A stretch of DNA of 64,000 nucleotides from Candidatus Uhrbacteria bacterium (GTDB lineage: Bacteria; Patescibacteriota; Patescibacteriia; UBA9934): contig CAWGHH010000001.1 of the NCBI GenBank assembly GCA_963822405.1, forward strand, positions 227,717 to 291,716, read 5' to 3'. Under the pieces are notes generated by a model. It worked only from the letters and a program-made list of their open reading frames with translations, did not search any database and was not told the DNA's origin. A program made the translations under genes and the position numbers. Every line of letters begins with the position of its first letter. Position 1 is the stretch's first letter. This document shows, one piece after another, positions 53,894-60,648 of the stretch.

Positions 53894-55968
53894 ATGGCAA
53901 TTCATTTGAAGGACTCGATCGCTTCTATTGCAACAATTGGCGCGGCCAAGGCGAAAGACTTTGCTAGGCTGGGCATCACAAATTTACACGAAGCACTTTT
54001 TGATTTTCCTTTTCGCTACGATGATTTGTCTCACGCAGTAGTGATTGCGGATGTAAAAGCCGGTCAGAAAGTGACGGTCGAGGGACCATCATGAATATTG
54101 AGAATCGTCAGAGTGCTAAGTCTAGAAAGATGATCATGACCGAGGCGATCATTGAAGACGGTACCGGCGCAATCAAGGCCGTTTGGTTTCACCAGGGCTT
54201 TTTGACTAAGGTTCTTAAGTCAGGACAGATTATTTCTTTGGCTGGCAAGGTCGATGACCGTTACGGTCTGTCCCTCGTGAATCCAGCGTATGAGGTAGTC
54301 GGCAGCGGAAAGATTGGCAAGGAAACTGGTCGAATTGTTCCGATTTATAAACTTACCGGTGCCTTGACTCAGAAGGTCCGCCGAAGAGTCGCTGAGGCTT
54401 CTCTTGGTTCAGTCAAAGAAGTTGAGGAATGGATGCCAGATAGAATTGTTTCAGAGGTTGAACTGATGGGACTTCACGGCGCTATCACTGAGCTACACTT
54501 TCCGTCGACGACTGAAGAAAAAGACAAGGCGTTGCGTCGTCTAAAATTTGACGAGTTTTTCTTGCACCAACTGTTGCACGCCAAGAGTCGTCGCGAGCTT
54601 AAGATGCGTAAGGCGCCAAAGGTTCCGTTTGACGAGGCCTACATGAAAGAGCTCGTAGCTGGCTTGCCTTTTGAATTAACTGGCGCGCAAAAGAAAGCTG
54701 TTTGGGCGATTATTAAGGATATGAATCGTCCGGAACCAATGAACCGGTTGCTTGAAGGTGACGTTGGTAGTGGTAAGACTGTTGTGGCGGCGTTAGTAGC
54801 TTGCAATGCATCAAAAGACGGTTGGCAGACGGCCATGTTGGCACCGACCGAGATCCTGGCCGAGCAACACGCTCAAACTTTGCAGAAACTATTTGGCTCT
54901 AGATTAACGATTGCGCTTTACACTCGAACAAAACGACGCGTGGGTGGCAAAGAGGTGACTAAGGCTCAGCTACTTTCCGCGCTTAAAAACGGCGCCGCTC
55001 AATTTGTCGTTGGCACACATGCGTTGCTGACACAGGATGTGTTGTTCGACCGTCTAGGATTGATTGTAGTGGACGAACAACACCGTTTTGGTGTGAAGCA
55101 ACGCCAGGCACTTAAGGACAAGCAGGGCGATCAGGACGGTATCCCCCACTTGCTGTCGATGACCGCTACGCCGATTCCTCGCTCGCTCGCACTCGTGCTT
55201 TACGGTGACCTCGACCGCTCAATTTTGAACGAATACCCAGCTGGTAGAAAACCAATTTTGACTGAGATGGTCGAGCTTGGCCGGGAAGAGCCAATTTACG
55301 AAATGATGCGCGAGCAAATGGCTTCTGGTCGGCAGATTTTTGTGGTCTGTCCTTTGATCGACGAGTCTGACGCGCTTGGTGTGAACTCTGTGCACGAGGT
55401 GTATCAGGAGTTTATGCTTGAGGCTTTCCGTGGCTTCAAAGTTTCCATGTTGCATGGTCGCATGAAGACTAAGGAGAAGGACGACGTCATGCGTGAATTT
55501 GCTGAGGGCAGATCGAACATGCTCATCTCGACAACGGTAGTCGAGGTTGGCGTTGACGTACCAAACGCAACAGTTATGTACGTTGAAGGTGCCGAGCGTT
55601 TCGGTCTGGCGCAGCTTCACCAGCTTCGCGGACGTGTTGGCCGTGGCGAACACCAGAGCTATTGTTATTTGCATCCCTCCGGCATCTTGGGTGAGGTTGC
55701 TTATGAGCGCATGAAGGCCATTGAAAACAGCCAGGACGGTTTTGACTTGGCCGAGCGTGATCTCCAGCTCCGTGGTCCAGGTAGTGTCTTCGGCACAAAC
55801 CAGTCCGGCTTCGACCAGTTCAAGCTCGGTACCATGAATGACATTGATCTCATGTCTCACGCTAAGGATTTCTCAAAAGAAGTCCTCGACGAAAGCCCCG
55901 ACCTCACTAACTATCCCAAACTCCGCGCCCGTTTGTACGAATACGTTGACGAAGTGCACTTCGAATAA
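53894..55968 (+). CDS. recG: ATP-dependent DNA helicase RecG (frame break at GGG run 54082-54084 between wedge domain and helicase core)
   Basis: The N-terminal segment (FDFPFRYDD...KVTVEG) is in frame 2 and ends at TGA 54092. The helicase core (GDVGSGKT, DEQHRFG, QLRGRVGRG) is in frame 1, starting at ATG 54091. Confidence 0.8.
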
Positions 55969-55975
55969 GGAAACT

Positions 55976-56059
55976 AAAAAGTCAGTATTGTCTCGAAAAT
56001 GGAGTCGGCCAGTAATGTACGGCGCCCTCCTGGCATTTTCTCGACAACACTGACTTTTT
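55976..56059. terminator. long hairpin (bidirectional terminator) between convergent recG and DUF4325 genes
   Basis: AAAAAGTCAGTATTGTC...GACAACACTGACTTTTT, ~17-bp stem with a 37-nt loop; a compact paralog is at 57176-57215. Confidence 0.45.
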
Positions 56060-56067
56060 GTTTTCCT

Positions 56068-56355
56068 TTACTTGTTGAACGTGAAACCGTGTACCTCTTC
56101 AAGAATTTGTAGAGTAGCCTTAACAGATGGATTCTCAGTATTGGCCAGAAGGAGGTTGGCTCCGTACATTTCGTGGAGCGGTTTGAGGAATTCATCGCCC
56201 CACGAGGGAGAGAAAGTGATGACGCCAGTAAAGTCGATGGTAATAATTTGATCGGTTGAGACCTCTGGTAGGCTTGGTCTGAAAGCGGCGAATGCTTCGC
56301 GACCAGCCTGACGAGAGGTGAGAGTGGTTCCAAATTTGCTGAGAGCGATAGTCAT
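56068..56355 (-). CDS. DUF4325 / STAS-like domain protein (candidate antagonist partner of the upstream GHKL ATPase)
   Basis: MTIALSKFGTTLTSRQAGREAFAAF...QIITIDFTGVITFSPSWGDEF resembles the STAS-like DUF4325 family; start taken at the internal Met. Confidence 0.45.
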   Translation of the reverse strand: MTIALSKFGTTLTSRQAGREAFAAFRPSLPEVSTDQIITIDFTGVITFSPSWGDEFLKPLHEMYGANLLLANTENPSVKATLQILEEVHGFTFNK

Positions 56356-56365
56356 ATAGGGATAT

Positions 56366-57091
56366 TTAATACTGAATATACACAAACGTTCCATTTATTG
56401 GGTGCGATGAAGTTAGTATTTCAAGCGATCGGTTTCCTTGTGCGAGATGAACGATGGCATTACCAGATTGAAATGATAGTTTGATGGGGTTATGATTTAC
56501 GACTGAGCGTACGAACTTTAGTCCGTTGCCTCTGTTTTCTGGAGCTCGACCGGTCACCACCTCGGTAAAAGCTGTTTGCAGTGCTTCTGAATCATTAGTT
56601 AGGTTTTGTCTGACACGTTTGAGTGTAGCTAGAATTCCTTGCCCTCGGTCCGCTAGAACGATATATTTTTTGTTAAGGTCGAAGGCAAAGAAAATACCCG
56701 GAACATCTGGCCAGTTGCCAAGGTTATGATCAAATGAGTTATTTCCAATTTCGCCGGCAATTGCAACCCAGAGTGGGAAGTCTTGGGAAATGCCCGGAGT
56801 CTGTTGCAGGGCAGTTTGAAATCTATTTAGTCGAGTTTGGAACGTGCCGCTGTTTGGGCAATACTGAGCCATGGGTGGTGGCTCGCTTTGGGCGCTGGTT
56901 GCCCAGTCTTGAGCGATTTTAGCCAAATCCTTTGAGAATATATCTATAGTCCACTGATGATATCTTCGGTGCCCGCCAGGAGATACAAAATCCGCTCGGA
57001 GTTTGCCTGATTTGTCCCATCTTCGGAGTGTTTGGAGATTGACCCCCAGGAGCTCTGCAGCCTCTGAAATACTGAGCATTTCGGTATCCAT
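56366..57091 (-). CDS. MerR-type HTH fused to GHKL (HATPase_c) ATPase, anti-sigma-factor/RsbW-like kinase
   Basis: N-terminal HTH LSISEAAELLGVNLQTLRRWDKSGKL; C-terminal N-box EIGNNSFDHN, G1 DRGQGI, G2 GNGLKF. Confidence 0.55.
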   Translation of the reverse strand: MDTEMLSISEAAELLGVNLQTLRRWDKSGKLRADFVSPGGHRRYHQWTIDIFSKDLAKIAQDWATSAQSEPPPMAQYCPNSGTFQTRLNRFQTALQQTPGISQDFPLWVAIAGEIGNNSFDHNLGNWPDVPGIFFAFDLNKKYIVLADRGQGILATLKRVRQNLTNDSEALQTAFTEVVTGRAPENRGNGLKFVRSVVNHNPIKLSFQSGNAIVHLAQGNRSLEILTSSHPINGTFVYIQY

Positions 57092-57107
57092 ATAGATAAA
57101 ATCTATA
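57091..57107 (+). promoter_or_regulatory. palindrome TATAGAT-aaa-ATCTATA abutting the MerR-HTH gene start
   Basis: Perfect 7-bp inverted repeat at -17..-1 relative to the start codon; AT-rich CTATACA-type direct repeats follow upstream. Confidence 0.3.
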
Positions 57108-57175
57108 CATTTATAGTAAAAACCTATACAAAACTATACATAAACATACAAAATCTGTCAACGGTCAACGAAAAC

Positions 57176-57215
57176 AAAAAGTCAGTATTGTCTTTTCTCG
57201 ACAACACCGACTTTT
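57176..57215 (-). terminator. hairpin terminator after surface-protein operon (compact copy of the 55976 hairpin)
   Basis: AAAAAGTCAGTATTGTC-ttttc-TCGACAACACCGACTTTTT. Confidence 0.45.
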
Positions 57216-57229
57216 TGGTTTCGTTTGGC

Positions 57230-58922
57230 CTAGAACGCGAGCGTACCACCGTTGGCGGTAAGATGCTTTACATACATTCCGTCAATGTTGACACCCGTGT
57301 TCGTTGAATCAGACCAGTTCATGCCCTTGAGGAGGGGTTTGGATGGGACAAGTGGTTCGGCTGGGAGGTCGAAGCGAATGACGTCGTCATCAGCTGAGCT
57401 GGCACCCGTTGCGTCGAAGTAAAGGGCAAACGTGTGGCTAGTGCCCTTTGTAATTACTGATGCAGTTGGGAGATTGATCCTTATGAAAGTTACGTTACCA
57501 GACGAAACGCAGGCTACTCCATTGCTATCCATGAGCGTCCAGTTGGTGTCTGCAGTATCAAGTGAGGTGCTTGAGTCCTGGTATAGGTCATAGATGTCGA
57601 AGTCTGCAGCCACAGTGTTGCCGCAGAGGTTCCAGCCAGTATTTGCGTTATCATTTGAGCTCATCTTAAAAGTGAGTGCATTAAGAACTACATCATCGCC
57701 TGCACTGGCTGCTACGTTAAAGCGAATCACTTCATTTCGACCGACAACTGCAGAACCCGATGGGCTGGAAGATGCGATGGAAATTGTGGGGCGAGTTTCG
57801 CGGAGAGTGAACGTTCCTCCCTGATAACCAACCCCCATTTCAACTTCTGTGATTACATTTCCTGAGGTCATGCCAATAGCTTTGAAGACACCGCCAGGTA
57901 AGAAGCCGAATGCTTCGCTGAAGGTCATGCCTGAGGCTCCGTTTCCTGTATTGCTGATATCGGCAGTATCTACGAACACTTCAATCACGGCTGCATTTGA
58001 AGCGCCGGTAGGAACGAAAAGGGTCAGGCCAGTGAATTTGACGAGATGATTTGAGACCGCTCCGATGCTGGTAACGGTCGCTCCGGTTGCATCTTTGTAG
58101 GAGATCTTCACGGTTTTAACAGCTGCATCATCGCCAACATTTTTAATGGTCAACGTTTGAACTGTATACGGCTCGTTAGTAGCGGTGAGTTTGAATACGC
58201 CGGCTTTGACAGTGCTATTCGCAAGAGCGATGTTGTTCGGGGTATTTGGATCAACGGAAAGACTGAGATTGCCGTGATCTTTAACTGTTATAGCAACTGA
58301 TTGTGAGGCGTTAACTCCTGGATCTTTTGGTCTCGCCAATATAGATACGGGCACCGGGTAGTGCACTCCCTTGGCCGTTTTCTGCGGATACATCAGTGTC
58401 GCTGTTAACAGAAAAGGCATAAATATCTGGGCTTGATCCATCTGGAGGAACGTTCGCAAAAGTACAATGAAGTGAATAGCCTCTTCCGGCATTAGCAGGA
58501 ATGGTAAGGTCTAGGTTTTCAAAAATTGCCCGTCCCAAATTATCAACTAGCACTGGAGCGGTAAGCGAATGACCTTGAAGATCCCAAAGCTGACAATTCG
58601 AGATGTGATCAGCTGGAGTTACGTTATTTTCTACACTCGCAAAGGTTCCGTCAGAATCGCCGATGACGTTAAATATAAGGCGCTTAACTCTGACGGGTTT
58701 GTTTTGTGCTTGAAGACTTATCGCTAGAACAGGATCAAGTCCAGTGCCAACAACTACTGCATGAGAAATAGTTTGAGGAACAGTTTTAACAACTAGAATT
58801 GGCAAAGCATTATTCGCCGCAATCACAAACCCCGCCGCTGCGGCGAGTAAGCCGGTGCCCATGATGGCAATGCCGACTAGGGCACTGGTTGTTGTTTGAA
58901 CTGCTGTTGATGTTTGTTGCAT
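57230..58922 (-). pseudogene. surface-protein paralog B, frameshifted near 58340-58390
   Basis: The ORF 58311-58949 (N-terminal part, frame 2) and the ORF 57230-58492 (C-terminal part, frame 1) together give 573 codons, against 572 for intact paralog A. They are collinear with A on both sides of the overlap. Confidence 0.5.
58830..58922 (-). repeat. 93-bp exact repeat (5' end of paralog B coding region), identical to 60556-60648
   Basis: Encodes the shared MQQTSTAVQTTTSALVGIAIMGTGLLAAAAGFVIAA signal anchor. Confidence 0.7.
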
Positions 58923-58929
58923 ATTGTAT

Positions 58930-60648
58930 TTAGAAGACGAGCGTGCCACCGGTTATTGGCAGATTTTTGATGAAATTACCGTTTATGAGGTCTAGTCCAT
59001 TCACACCTTCGCGCCATTGGATAGTGTGTAGCAATGGGGAAAATTGGTGAGCTGGCTCGGAAACAATTTCAACTTTGATGGCGTCGTCCTGCGCTGAATC
59101 AGCGCCAGTTGAATCTACGATGAGTGAAAATGTATGAGAAGTTCCTGCTGAGATATTGCCATGAACAAGATTTACTAACGCATATCCCACAACTGCCTGT
59201 TCACGATCAGCCGGACCGCACTGATTACCATCAGCATTCATGATTATCCATGACGAATTGTTATTGCTAAGAACCTCTCCTGTTGTGAGGTCCTTAAGTT
59301 CCCACTTCGATGTGTCCCCGAGTCCGCTAACCGTGGAGGATCCGCACGACGCCCATGGGTGTTCAATGTGAGAGAAAGTATCGATCTTGAAAGTCATTTG
59401 TGACATGCTTAGATCACCAGCTGGATCTGCCGCTACATTGAACCGTAGGACTTCTGAACGGCCAGGAATTGCGGCTCCTGAAGGGGTTGAAGAGGATAGA
59501 GTGATGGTCGGGCGAGTCTTGCGGATTTCTAATCCGGCAGGGCTAGGAATATCACCGTTCATGTTCGCTTCGGTGATAACTTTGCCGGAAGTGTTGCCAC
59601 GCGCCATGAAGCTGCCTGGAGTTGTGAGATCAAGTGTCGCGCTCATGCCCCAGCCTGAACGAACAGGGCTGGTGGAGTTGATTGGTGCAGCTTCAAATGT
59701 TACATCGATCGGTAGGGCATTAGTCGCACCTGCTGGAACGTTAATAGCTAGTCCGGTGAAGTCGGCTACGCCGTTTACAAAAGCTACACCATTAGTCATG
59801 AGTCGGCCATCTGGAAGTTTGTAACCAAGGAAGGCGAAGTTTGCACCTCCAAGTTCACCGTATTGCTTGATGCGAAGTTTTTGGATGGTGAACGCTTCGT
59901 TAGTGCTTGAGAATTTGTATGTAGCAATCTTTGCTTGAGTACCAGCGATGATAATGTCGTCCTTCGGAGAGGTTGGGTCGATGCTGGCGGAAAGTTTTCC
60001 GCTACTTCTAACTGTCACGGTTACCGGTCCACCCATGTTTACACCGACATCCGCTGGACTTCCTACGTTGATTCGATCGGCGCCTAGGATATTGTTCGCG
60101 ATAGTCGCTCTGGCTACGACGTTGGCAGGATTGCCTCCAAGCTCGAACGCCATGATGTACTTATCGTTCGCAGAACTGCCTGCGAGGTCGCAGTTAATAG
60201 TGAACTGGGTAACCGTGTTAGCCGGCAATGTGAATGTGTCAGCAAAGGTTATTATGTTTCCGTTTTCAATGTATGACGGCCCGGCAAAGACAGAGCCGGT
60301 TTGCTTATTTTTGATTACGCACGAGGTTACTAAATCAGCGCCCGAAAGATCGTTTTCAATTGTATTAAAGTTGCCGTCGCTATCTGCCAGCACATCAAAA
60401 ACAAGTTTATTTATAGTTATGCCTTTATTTTTAGCTTCTAAGCTAAAGCCGAGCATTTGTTCATCTCGTGCACCTTGCACAGCACTATGTGCGGTTGGCT
60501 TTGGGGTTGCTCTGATATTCAGAATAGGACCAGTGTTACTAGCCGCGATTACGAATCCCGCCGCTGCGGCGAGTAAGCCGGTGCCCATGATGGCAATGCC
60601 GACTAGGGCACTGGTTGTTGTTTGAACTGCTGTTGATGTTTGTTGCAT
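58930..60648 (-). CDS. surface/cell-envelope protein paralog A (signal-anchored, beta-rich, 572 aa)
   Basis: N-terminal hydrophobic anchor, Thr/Ser/Asn/Gly-rich beta-type domains, conserved C-terminal ...TGGTLVF. A TATAAT sits 7 nt upstream of the ATG, with a G9 tract in the -35/spacer region. Confidence 0.55.
   Translation of the reverse strand: MQQTSTAVQTTTSALVGIAIMGTGLLAAAAGFVIAASNTGPILNIRATPKPTAHSAVQGARDEQMLGFSLEAKNKGITINKLVFDVLADSDGNFNTIENDLSGADLVTSCVIKNKQTGSVFAGPSYIENGNIITFADTFTLPANTVTQFTINCDLAGSSANDKYIMAFELGGNPANVVARATIANNILGADRINVGSPADVGVNMGGPVTVTVRSSGKLSASIDPTSPKDDIIIAGTQAKIATYKFSSTNEAFTIQKLRIKQYGELGGANFAFLGYKLPDGRLMTNGVAFVNGVADFTGLAINVPAGATNALPIDVTFEAAPINSTSPVRSGWGMSATLDLTTPGSFMARGNTSGKVITEANMNGDIPSPAGLEIRKTRPTITLSSSTPSGAAIPGRSEVLRFNVAADPAGDLSMSQMTFKIDTFSHIEHPWASCGSSTVSGLGDTSKWELKDLTTGEVLSNNNSSWIIMNADGNQCGPADREQAVVGYALVNLVHGNISAGTSHTFSLIVDSTGADSAQDDAIKVEIVSEPAHQFSPLLHTIQWREGVNGLDLINGNFIKNLPITGGTLVF

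Follow-up and report, generated by a model that had tools for sequence, protein, structure and literature searches.

A self-contained two-gene cassette of CPR bacteria encoding a predicted HTH–GHKL protein and a STAS-domain partner

The closest known system to the gene pair described here is CapK/CapS, reported together with VapK/VapS by Chambers et al. (EMBO J 2026; PMC13373217). CapK phosphorylates a conserved serine of CapS, in helix 2 of the STAS domain, and the system has no phosphatase (PMC13373217). For DNA binding, the point of reference is BldC, which forms head-to-tail multimers on direct repeats (PMC5859096). The anti-sigma kinase/STAS family has so far comprised two layouts, sigma-factor switching and the CapK/CapS repressor system. 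The pair analysed here, genes A and B, adds a third, in which the DNA-binding domain sits on the predicted kinase.

The pair lies in a 64-kb stretch of DNA, referred to as the window. Its hosts, the ultra-small CPR/Patescibacteria, have tiny genomes, and little has been learned about their gene regulation. Sources that give gene A a name describe it as an HTH, MerR or excisionase protein and nothing more. Both open reading frames were confirmed on the minus strand, at the coordinates given in a preliminary description of this DNA.

Domains of the two proteins

Gene A (56366–57091, minus strand) encodes a protein of 241 residues, in which a winged HTH of the MerR/BldC type is followed by a two-helix linker and a GHKL domain resembling SpoIIAB, RsbW and CapK. 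The winged HTH (residues 5–50; 56942–57079, minus strand) matched Pfam MerR over residues 7–44 (E 2.3e-10; 40.5 bits, cutoff 28.2 bits), bearing out the earlier assignment of a MerR-type HTH, and profile matches included BmrR, MtaN, TipA and CueR. In fold it resembles BldC; the NCBIfam model HTH_BldC scored 33.9 bits against a 77-bit cutoff. Single-sequence and profile searches of PDB sequences with A returned MerR-type HTH proteins only. PADLOC matches were likewise confined to the HTH (mad1), apart from a weak DrmA stretch judged uninformative. The recognition helix spans residues 19–28 and contains Gln20 (codon 57032–57034), the residue that covaries with the operator box discussed below. 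In the AlphaFold2 model of A (mean pLDDT 88), the HTH and the N-box helix are linked by two helices alone (residues 56–65 and 81–97), too short a stretch to accommodate an internal STAS domain. The long coiled-coil helix through which classical MerR proteins dimerise is absent from this model.

The C-terminal domain (residues about 75–241; 56369–56869, minus strand) is predicted to be a GHKL ATP-binding, kinase-like domain. Foldseek placed it among GHKL ATPases with probability 1.0. The best structural matches were SpoIIAB, RsbW, UsfX and SiaB, and every one of the top five neighbours is the kinase of a STAS-type protein. The domain has the alpha/beta sandwich and flexible ATP lid of the superfamily, together with an N box (pattern E..N..H; Glu114–His122, 56726–56752), a G1 box (DxGxG; Asp148–Gly152, 56636–56650) and a G2 box (GxGxG-like; Arg187–Leu191, 56519–56533). 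Across 196 unique homologues of A, Glu114, Asn118 and His122 of the N box, Gly150 and Gly152 of G1, and Arg187, Gly188, Asn189 and Gly190 of G2 are invariant, and Asp148 of G1 is retained in 194. As judged from the model, the SpoIIAB/RsbW subfamily is its closest structural neighbour within the GHKL superfamily.

The kinase domain of A is invisible to Pfam. No family reached its threshold with the C-terminal domain, and HATPase_c_2 matched two of 38 homologues (best E 0.043) and not the window protein itself. The GHKL assignment therefore rests on structure and motifs. On these grounds the RsbW/SpoIIAB-like fold proposed earlier stands, but the Pfam profile check stayed below threshold. The nearest sequence relative is a CapK-like kinase (hhalign probability 94%, E 1.4e-7), whose gene stands ahead of a STAS-wHTH gene and a ThiF/DUF6527 operon; this kinase itself matches HATPase_c_2 at E 9e-6. 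This locus was reached by tblastn of the GHKL domain, which gave a single match among plasmids (E 0.9) and none among phages; a plasmid search for further CapK homologues, intended for a comparison of HTH type, yielded too few. Against SpoIIAB, whose sequence was entered by hand, the A profile aligned without significance (E 0.15), with the N, G1 and G2 motifs lining up. A relative lacking the HTH, P0312, matches HATPase_c_2 at E 7e-4 and has a DUF4325 partner (Pfam E 2.4e-10); no operator boxes were found 5′ of it.

Gene B (56068–56355, minus strand) encodes a single STAS domain of 95 residues belonging to the DUF4325 family. All 33 aligned homologues begin at the residue that corresponds to its start at 56355. 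Pfam PF14213 scored the window protein at 15.5 bits (cutoff 23), and about 60% of close B homologues among the matches listed carry a precomputed PF14213 match. The fold is that of STAS, in agreement with the STAS-like DUF4325 identity first suggested; the best structural matches include SpoIIAA, and MlaB-type STAS proteins rank equally high. Weak Pfam and NCBIfam matches to glutathione synthetase were set aside as the identity of B because the fold is STAS.

The candidate phospho-acceptor of B is Ser51 (codon 56203–56205, minus strand), which lies in Pro50-Ser51-Trp52 at the start of helix 2; in the model this helix begins at residue 50. The preliminary description called for a phosphorylatable residue conserved among DUF4325 homologues; Ser51 is invariant, occurring in 190 of 190 homologues within an invariant P-S-W motif. 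The equivalent serine is retained in the DUF4325 partner of P0312. We liken Ser51 to SpoIIAA Ser58, CapS Ser54 and VapS Ser48, a correspondence in which sequence alignments do not fix the serine position. The hhalign comparison of the B profile with SpoIIAA (sequence entered by hand) was not significant and left the serine outside the alignment. VapS aligned weakly (E 0.8), with its Ser48 facing Pro50, one residue off Ser51, and the STAS parts of Cytobacillus CapS-like and CapK-like proteins gave no similarity to B.

Operator repeats and promoter

The conserved cis element of the pair is composed of two to four direct TGYATAGNTTT repeats that lie over the promoter, mostly at a spacing of 21 nt. 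In the window the operator box TGTATAGNTTT is repeated three times in direct orientation at 57099–57140 (minus strand), and repeats also occur 5′ of 73 of 81 orthologues. The box cores lie at 57134–57140, 57124–57130 and 57103–57109 (minus strand), or −49, −39 and −18 relative to the ATG. A promoter scan predicted a sigma-70-type promoter at 57133–57161 (minus strand; TTGACA, 17 nt, TATAGT; 11 of 12 matches). Its −10 element is inside box 1 and the predicted transcription start falls under box 2, so that the boxes in the window overlie the −10 element, the transcription start and +22; most orthologues have theirs at −35 and −56. Successive boxes are separated by 21 nt (n=53), 20 nt (n=13) or 10 nt (n=8).

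Over 1.36 Mb of locus DNA, box density was 14.1 per kb within 150 nt 5′ of gene A versus 0.049 per kb elsewhere, a difference of about 286-fold. Phased box pairs numbered 79 upstream of A and three elsewhere; of the latter, two lie ahead of a second gene A copy. The rest of the 64-kb window contains no extended box. Box variants are uniform inside any one locus, and residue 20 of the recognition helix follows base 3 of the box with no exceptions, Asp occurring with C, Gln or Met with T, and Asn with G. The mutual information of 0.87 bit is near the two-class maximum. Together, these patterns give strong in silico support to the prediction that A binds two to four TGYATAGNTTT repeats through its BldC-like winged HTH. 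Equally well supported in silico is the arrangement of the repeats, phased about two helical turns apart and overlying the promoter of the A–B operon.

A perfect palindrome abutting gene A had been put forward as an auto-operator. The palindrome, TATAGATAAAATCTATA, does exist exactly at 57091–57107, occurs once in the window and is made up of box 3 and an inverted ATCTATA; its final base is the A of the gene A ATG. However, the inverted half is missing from the orthologues, and the palindrome was rejected as operator because this second arm is not conserved. Perfect 7-3-7 palindromes number 14 in the window versus roughly four expected (4^-7 per position), and TATAGATAAAATCTATA is statistically unremarkable and probably incidental. 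Autoregulation as such is well supported, but through the TGYATAGNTTT direct repeats instead.

Distribution and genomic setting

The A–B pair is present in at least 577 species-level genomes of CPR/Patescibacteria. A survey of co-occurrence of the fusion gene with a DUF4325 gene, suggested in the preliminary description, found B directly after A in 86 of 86 related loci from many Patescibacteria lineages, and both proteins are 50–69% identical across many lineages. Among 87 loci, neither a sigma-factor gene nor another third gene recurred beside the pair; the expectation of a system without a sigma factor thus holds for gene linkage. Nor was a phosphatase gene linked to the pair among the neighbours across the 87 loci. 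The commonest neighbour family occurs at eight of 87 loci, and the immediate neighbours represent 113 Pfam families among 126 proteins, many of them housekeeping genes, not defence islands. At only 51 of 75 loci does the downstream neighbour run in the same direction as the pair, a share close to that of the upstream neighbour.

DNA homology between loci ends just 5′ of the box array and at the B stop codon. Module pairs that are 79–91% identical in DNA have nothing detectably in common in the 5 kb on either side, and some genomes hold two copies. The pair is a self-contained cassette, located at unrelated sites in different genomes. Direct repeats of local sequence, 20–84 nt long, flank it on both sides in about one-sixth of loci. 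These repeats are locus-specific, as 11 of 70 same-locus but two of 4830 cross-locus comparisons reach 35 bits. They vary in sequence and length between loci, which is at odds with site-specific recombination. In the window, the upstream repeat copy is a terminator-type hairpin (57167–57225, minus strand) that follows the upstream surface-protein gene. The downstream copy (55967–56068, minus strand) comes directly after the B stop and has an extra 32 nt in the loop. The hairpin 17-mer is found only at the four arms of these two hairpins in 64 kb, with 0.02 expected. The end of a convergent recG-like gene faces B. Should the long repeats on either side of the cassette prove to be footprints of insertion, they would indicate a mode of gene movement that has yet to be explained.

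Movement of the cassette is rare, since an identical B protein in 10 contigs of one population, used as a test for recent movement, was always in the same place. Between module and host flanks, GC content is correlated (r 0.75). The module turned up in just one of 2.9 million viral contigs and is thus not typically viral. A large serine recombinase adjoins the module at two loci (L003 and L004) and in the viral contig (L087).

Proposed switch, alternatives and known systems

On balance, we lean towards a cassette of two genes, self-contained and self-regulating, that is typical of CPR/Patescibacteria and built around a kinase–STAS partner switch. A bound to the repeat array would repress the A–B operon, with activation possible instead in most orthologues, since there the proximal box is the −35 hexamer. 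The C-terminal domain of A would bind ATP and be active as a serine kinase of the SpoIIAB/RsbW/CapK type. B would dock on this domain and be phosphorylated at Ser51, as in SpoIIAA, CapS and VapS. Free, A-bound and phosphorylated B could then alter the oligomerisation of A on the repeats, and with it promoter occupancy. Both the phosphorylation of B and its control over DNA binding by A are steps that we infer. The outcome would be a partner switch without a sigma factor, its DNA-binding domain carried by the kinase itself. Because the cassette lacks a phosphatase, fresh synthesis from the autoregulated promoter would restore the supply of B, a route also proposed for CapS. The input signal is possibly ATP/ADP or some other ligand. 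Against such a switch stand the non-significant sequence similarity to SpoIIAB, the sub-threshold HATPase_c_2 match and the unfixed position of the serine in alignments; in addition, a symmetric kinase dimer, as in SpoIIAB, is poorly suited to a direct-repeat operator, and its own promoter as the sole DNA target would leave the physiological output unexplained. With a defined putative operator, a one-residue/one-base rule and a single candidate phospho-serine, the system is directly testable.

In a considerably less probable reading, the pair is a selfish cassette of the addiction or defence type, toxin–antitoxin-like, with B as antidote. A would sequester a host sigma factor or phosphorylate a host protein, B would occupy that surface, and the HTH would merely autoregulate the pair; B would have to be made continuously because A uses it up by phosphorylation. 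The compact autoregulated unit with sharp boundaries, the modules 79–91% identical in DNA within unrelated flanks, the locus-specific flanking repeats, the heterogeneous neighbours and the genomes with two copies all agree with this. So does the failure to find a DNA target beyond the cassette's own promoter in the locus DNA and the 64-kb window, and VapK/VapS, a related pair, belongs to a toxin–antitoxin system (PMC13373217). However, A and B contain no recognisable toxin domain, and their strong conservation is unlike that of typical fast-evolving toxin–antitoxin pairs. The match of module GC to host flanks, the fixed position in 10 contigs of one population and the often housekeeping neighbours also speak against it. 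A further, unlikely reading joins mobility to a timer: a mobile, self-regulating CPR cassette of a kind not recognised before would insert without a recombinase of its own, leaving direct target duplications of 20–84 nt, the duplicated target often being a terminator hairpin or gene end. Its kinase would repress the cassette and steadily consume its own STAS inhibitor, and would be freed to act on a host target once synthesis ceases or on the arrival of a phage or stress signal. It is highly improbable that A is instead a recombination accessory factor, whose excisionase-like HTH on repeats near the left end aids cassette movement as a directionality or architectural factor. Flanking direct repeats do exist, and the recombinases adjoining L003, L004 and L087 would suit such a role, but the cassette has no recombinase, none is nearby in most loci, and the boxes coincide with promoter elements.

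The same kinase-like domain could also serve without phosphotransfer, although we regard this as rather unlikely. A would then be an ATP-sensing one-component regulator whose GHKL domain only binds or hydrolyses ATP, and B, comparable to MlaB on MlaF, a stable STAS cofactor that stays unphosphorylated and adjusts ATPase activity or oligomerisation. The equal rank of MlaB-type proteins and SpoIIAA in the fold search, the lack of a linked phosphatase gene and the unfixed serine position in sequence alignments are consistent with this. Against it stand the five best structural neighbours of the A domain, all kinases of STAS-type proteins, its nearest sequence relative, of CapK type, and the invariant serine at the beginning of STAS helix 2, the feature by which phosphorylated antagonists are defined (PMC13373217). 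Kinship with CapK would also permit a local controller that activates adjacent genes, as CapK and CapS govern a neighbouring operon (PMC13373217). In the window its target would be the surface-protein operon, whose regulation by the pair had been suggested earlier. We rejected this operon as a target, since a terminator separates it from the pair, neighbouring genes change at nearly every locus and no extended box occurs elsewhere in the window. In general, too, such a controller has very little probability, given that no neighbour family recurs, that downstream genes are co-oriented about as often as upstream ones, that phased boxes nearly all precede gene A homologues, and that B in the window faces the end of the recG-like gene.

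Compared with known systems, the proposed partner switch shares features with several. Like type II toxin–antitoxin systems, the cassette is a small, apparently self-regulating two-gene unit at unrelated positions in related genomes, but it has no known toxin fold, it carries its DNA-binding domain on the larger of the two proteins, which is enzyme-like and encoded first, and its conservation is unusually high. The N-terminal MerR-type winged HTH of A is shared with classical MerR regulators, which have an antiparallel coiled-coil helix and a C-terminal effector domain and bind a palindrome in a 19–20-bp promoter spacer, whereas A has direct repeats and a 17-nt spacer. BldC likewise uses direct repeats, variable in number and with T-rich extensions (PMC5859096). 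However, BldC is a single domain of 68 residues on adjacent 9–10-nt repeats, while the winged HTH of A is fused to a kinase domain and its boxes are mostly spaced by 21 nt.

SpoIIAB/SpoIIAA and RsbW/RsbV are the best structural matches for A and B. In common with them, the pair has aligned N, G1 and G2 boxes, an adjacent antagonist gene and a serine at the start of STAS helix 2. In contrast to those modules, it has no linked sigma-factor or PP2C phosphatase gene, its kinase is fused to a DNA-binding domain, and the order is kinase then STAS; sequence similarity of A and B to SpoIIAB and SpoIIAA is not significant. With CapK/CapS and VapK/VapS, the cassette shares a gene for an anti-sigma-type GHKL kinase directly 5′ of a STAS partner with a helix-2 serine. 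CapK, like A, has an N-terminal HTH, and CapK/CapS also lacks a sigma factor and a phosphatase and autoregulates its own promoter. B is a bare 95-residue STAS domain, whereas CapS adds a wHTH repressor domain and VapS a C-terminal toxin-blocking tail. The immune operon or toxin associated with those pairs is missing from A–B loci, and the palindromic operator of CapK/CapS is replaced by direct repeats in a cassette hosted by CPR bacteria. CapK is ordered HTH, internal STAS and GHKL, and A lacks the internal STAS, which in CapK is the site of ssDNA activation. Finally, the HTH of CapK showed no detectable role, whereas covariation with the operator boxes assigns DNA binding to kinase A.

Conserved features of the two proteins

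Gene A (56366–57091, minus strand, 241 aa) encodes a MerR/BldC-type winged helix-turn-helix (HTH) fused to a GHKL domain, and gene B (56068–56355, minus strand, 95 aa) encodes a STAS protein of the DUF4325 family. The two genes are co-directional, with a 10-nt gap between them. Comparison with homologues shows the predicted ATP site of A to be kept intact. Among 196 unique A homologues, E114, N118 and H122 of the N box, G150 and G152 of G1, and R187, G188, N189 and G190 of G2 are invariant, while D148 of G1 is present in 194. Sequence similarity of the GHKL domain to SpoIIAB is not significant (hhalign E 0.15); nevertheless, the motifs of the two proteins line up in that alignment. The domain resembles an "ATP-binding protein" of a Cytobacillus plasmid (hhalign probability 94%, E 1.4e-7), which itself matches HATPase_c_2 (E 9e-6), and also matches the phage protein family phrog_3364 (E 6.7e-14).

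Comparative evidence likewise shows B as a predicted STAS protein with an invariant serine at the start of helix 2. Its motif F-S/T-P-S-W-G-D-E-F lies at the strand 3/helix 2 junction, where P50, S51 and W52 are invariant among 190 unique homologues and position 49 is Ser or Thr in 176 of them. In the STAS protein paired with an HTH-less relative, the motif reads G-P-S-W-A-D-E-F, so that of S49 and S51 only S51 is kept. Ser54 of CapS and the SpoIIAA serine occupy an equivalent place on helix 2 (PMC13373217). VapS (9z7o) is a weak match to the B profile (E 0.8). Counting by hand along that alignment, and taking the deposited chain to carry an 18-residue tag, places VapS S48 opposite P50, and the exact residue equivalence of S51 is therefore inferred.

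A direct-repeat array at the promoter of gene A

The preliminary description had taken a palindrome at 57091–57107 as a candidate auto-operator. The perfect palindrome exists, although its role as an operator was rejected: 14 perfect 7-3-7 palindromes occur in the window, and the second arm of this one is missing in orthologues, where direct repeats are conserved instead. The conserved element is an array of direct repeats of a box, TGYATAGNTTT; of 81 non-redundant loci, 73 have it ahead of A, almost always in forward orientation. The commonest spacing from one box to the next is 21 nt (53 cases), with 20 nt in 13 cases and 10 nt in another 8. Boxes reach 14.1 per kb within the 150 nt upstream of A, compared to 0.049 per kb in the other 1.36 Mb, and phased box pairs number 79 upstream of A versus 3 elsewhere, two of which lie ahead of an additional copy of gene A in locus L057.

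Box variants (for example, TGCATAGGGTTT, TGTATAGATTT, TGGGTAGATTT, ATGAGTAG and TGTATAACTTT) are constant within a locus and different between loci. The variant is predicted by residue 20 of A, at the start of the recognition helix, which is Asp in all 44 TGCATAG loci, Gln or Met in all 18 TGTATAG loci, Asn with TGGGTAG and Ser with ATGAGTAG. Mutual information between this residue and the box variant is 0.87 bit, the next-best column reaching 0.44. This covariation provides strong comparative evidence that the A HTH reads the boxes, and the comparison of loci shows A as a predicted recognizer of its own promoter. Direct-repeat binding without a coiled coil has been described for BldC (PMC5859096).

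In most loci, the proximal box doubles as the −35 element (tTGCAT), followed in 37 of 48 loci by a 17-nt spacer and an extended −10 (TGnTAnaaT). The −10 ends 6–9 nt ahead of the ATG in 26 of 48 loci, and Shine–Dalgarno-like sequences are scarce (5 of 81 upstream regions), suggesting that the A–B mRNAs of most orthologues are probably leaderless. Examples from loci L005–L086 are the upstream regions L022 2190–2248 and L010 4940–5000. The window differs in that its near-consensus promoter has a separate TTGACA (57156–57161), spaced by 17 nt from TATAGT (57133–57138), ahead of the boxes; these overlie the −10, the predicted transcription start and about +22. This placement argues for repression by A in promoters of the window type. 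L002 is arranged similarly, with TTGACA 17 nt ahead of a TATAGT inside the first box, and boxes are equally near the start codon in a few other loci (e.g. L002, L042 and L053). The leader in the window is about 35 nt and has no Shine–Dalgarno sequence.

Boundaries, neighbors and distribution of the cassette

Upstream of the promoter, a terminator-type hairpin (57175–57217) follows the last of a set of surface-protein-like genes. A second copy (55967–56068) directly follows the B stop codon, and beyond it a convergent recG-like gene ends. The 17-mer of the hairpin stem is confined to these four arms within the 64-kb window. The loop of the downstream copy is longer by about 32 nt (about 56002–56033). 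Two adjacent surface-protein-like ORFs on the minus strand, 58311–58949 and 58930–60648, have the same first 35 residues (MQQTSTAVQTTTSALVGIAIMGTGLLAAAAGFVIA...), and the truncated former ORF overlaps the latter at its end, which fits a duplicated or shuffled 5′ cassette. Regulation of the surface-protein operon by the pair, suggested in the preliminary description, found no support, since neighbors vary, those downstream are co-oriented about as often as those upstream and the extended box occupies three positions in the window, all at the pair's own promoter. No further gene family recurs beside the pair, the top candidate being present in 8 of 87 loci, and 126 immediate neighbors represent 113 Pfam families, many of them housekeeping. 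Co-orientation with the pair is seen for 51 of 75 downstream and 46 of 73 upstream neighbors.

DNA homology between loci starts 60–134 nt upstream of A and stops within about 20 nt of the B stop codon in nearly all closest pairs. These sharp boundaries hold even for modules that are 79–91% identical, which have no tblastx similarity in their 5-kb flanks. Locus-specific direct repeats of 20–84 nt bracket the cassette in 11 of 70 loci (≥35 bits), compared to 2 of 4830 cross-locus comparisons at the same threshold. The upstream copy lies 70–350 nt ahead of A and the downstream copy usually starts 0–60 nt past the B stop (about 240–360 nt in L023, L036 and L061). The repeated unit corresponds to the initial 52 nt of the downstream gene in L027 (4823–4874/6057–6108), to the final codons of the upstream gene in L047 and L013, and to a terminator hairpin in L076, L035, L057 and the window (57167–57225 and 55967–56068; longest ungapped match to the downstream copy, 30 nt). 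In L036 (519–602/1982–2065), it begins, by eye, in the 3′ end of an apparent tRNA gene; L007 (3249–3310/4447–4508), L012, L023 and L061 also carry repeats. The repeats look like a long, variable target duplication on insertion. The cassette contains no recombinase, and no conserved terminal sequence was seen by eye. Movement seems rare, as module GC follows flank GC (r 0.75) and the cassette is at the same place in 10 contigs of one groundwater population. A large serine recombinase adjoins the module in L003/L004 (7091–8749; one genome locus) and in L087 (4191–5858), the only viral contig with the module, which also carries terminase subunits and a replication initiator; the module may lie at a prophage boundary there.

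Database searches returned more than 5800 A homologues (E ≤ 1e-3); those listed are ~240 aa and, where a source was named, come from Patescibacteria groups. When one genome per species was scanned with a pattern, at least 577 genomes contained a relative, spanning Yanofsky-, Nealson-, Magasanik-, Uhr-, Kerfeld-, Berkel-, Peregrini-, Roizman-, Levy- and Doudnabacteria, among others. Each of the 86 loci examined has a same-strand B homologue downstream of A, with a gap below 200 nt in 83, and on this comparative evidence the two genes appear inseparable. Some genomes have two modules: L057 (1027–2097 and 5955–6743), where the copies are 5 kb apart with the same box variant and cross-regulation is possible, and the contig pairs CAZWLI010000169/134 (L017, L083) and CAYXST010000050/57 (L078, L086). 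Module-bearing contigs labeled Elusimicrobia (L045), Gammaproteobacteria (L037) and Methylomirabilis (L073) represent either mis-binned CPR contigs or transfer outside CPR.

The GHKL part of A has 309 matches (E ≤ 1e-3) among 1.84 billion representative proteins, including HTH-less forms of about 190–200 aa and proteins with other N-termini; P0256, P0265 and P0277 are examples of such relatives. The N-terminus of P0265 looks by eye like a different winged helix, with no Pfam match, and that of P0277 is cytidylyltransferase-like. At L099 (4001–4873), the one HTH-less locus inspected, a DUF4325 gene is still downstream (Pfam E 2.4e-10) and TGYATAG boxes are absent; the pair sits between def and fmt.

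Proposed mechanism and comparison with known systems

By analogy with SpoIIAB/SpoIIAA and CapK/CapS, B would dock on the kinase domain of A and A would phosphorylate it on S51, and the state of B would alter the occupancy of the repeat array by A. The main alternative is that the pair is a selfish element of an addiction or defense type, in which the kinase would act on a host protein and B would be the antidote. It is also possible that A is an ATP sensor that does not phosphorylate, with B as its STAS cofactor.

No published description of the A–B family was found; the three full-text mentions of DUF4325 were incidental, and no literature joining Patescibacteria with "anti-sigma factor antagonist" was found. 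A Cytobacillus plasmid locus (L088 2524–6357, NZ_CP097350.1) appears to be an unannotated CapK/CapS–Bub locus. Its "ATP-binding protein" gene is followed by a MarR-annotated regulator gene, whose product matches a winged-helix model in its C-terminal part, and then by a ThiF/DUF6527 operon, a gene order like the one described for CapK/CapS ahead of Bub operons (PMC13373217). The CapK-like protein of L088 has no N-terminal HTH.

The nearest described systems are CapK/CapS and VapK/VapS (2026). Unlike CapK, A has no internal STAS domain, and B is a bare STAS protein lacking the DNA-binding or toxin-blocking part of CapS and VapS. DNA recognition, in contrast to CapK/CapS, would reside on the kinase. 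The A–B pair further differs from both systems in having no associated operon, in its operator of direct repeats and in its CPR hosts.
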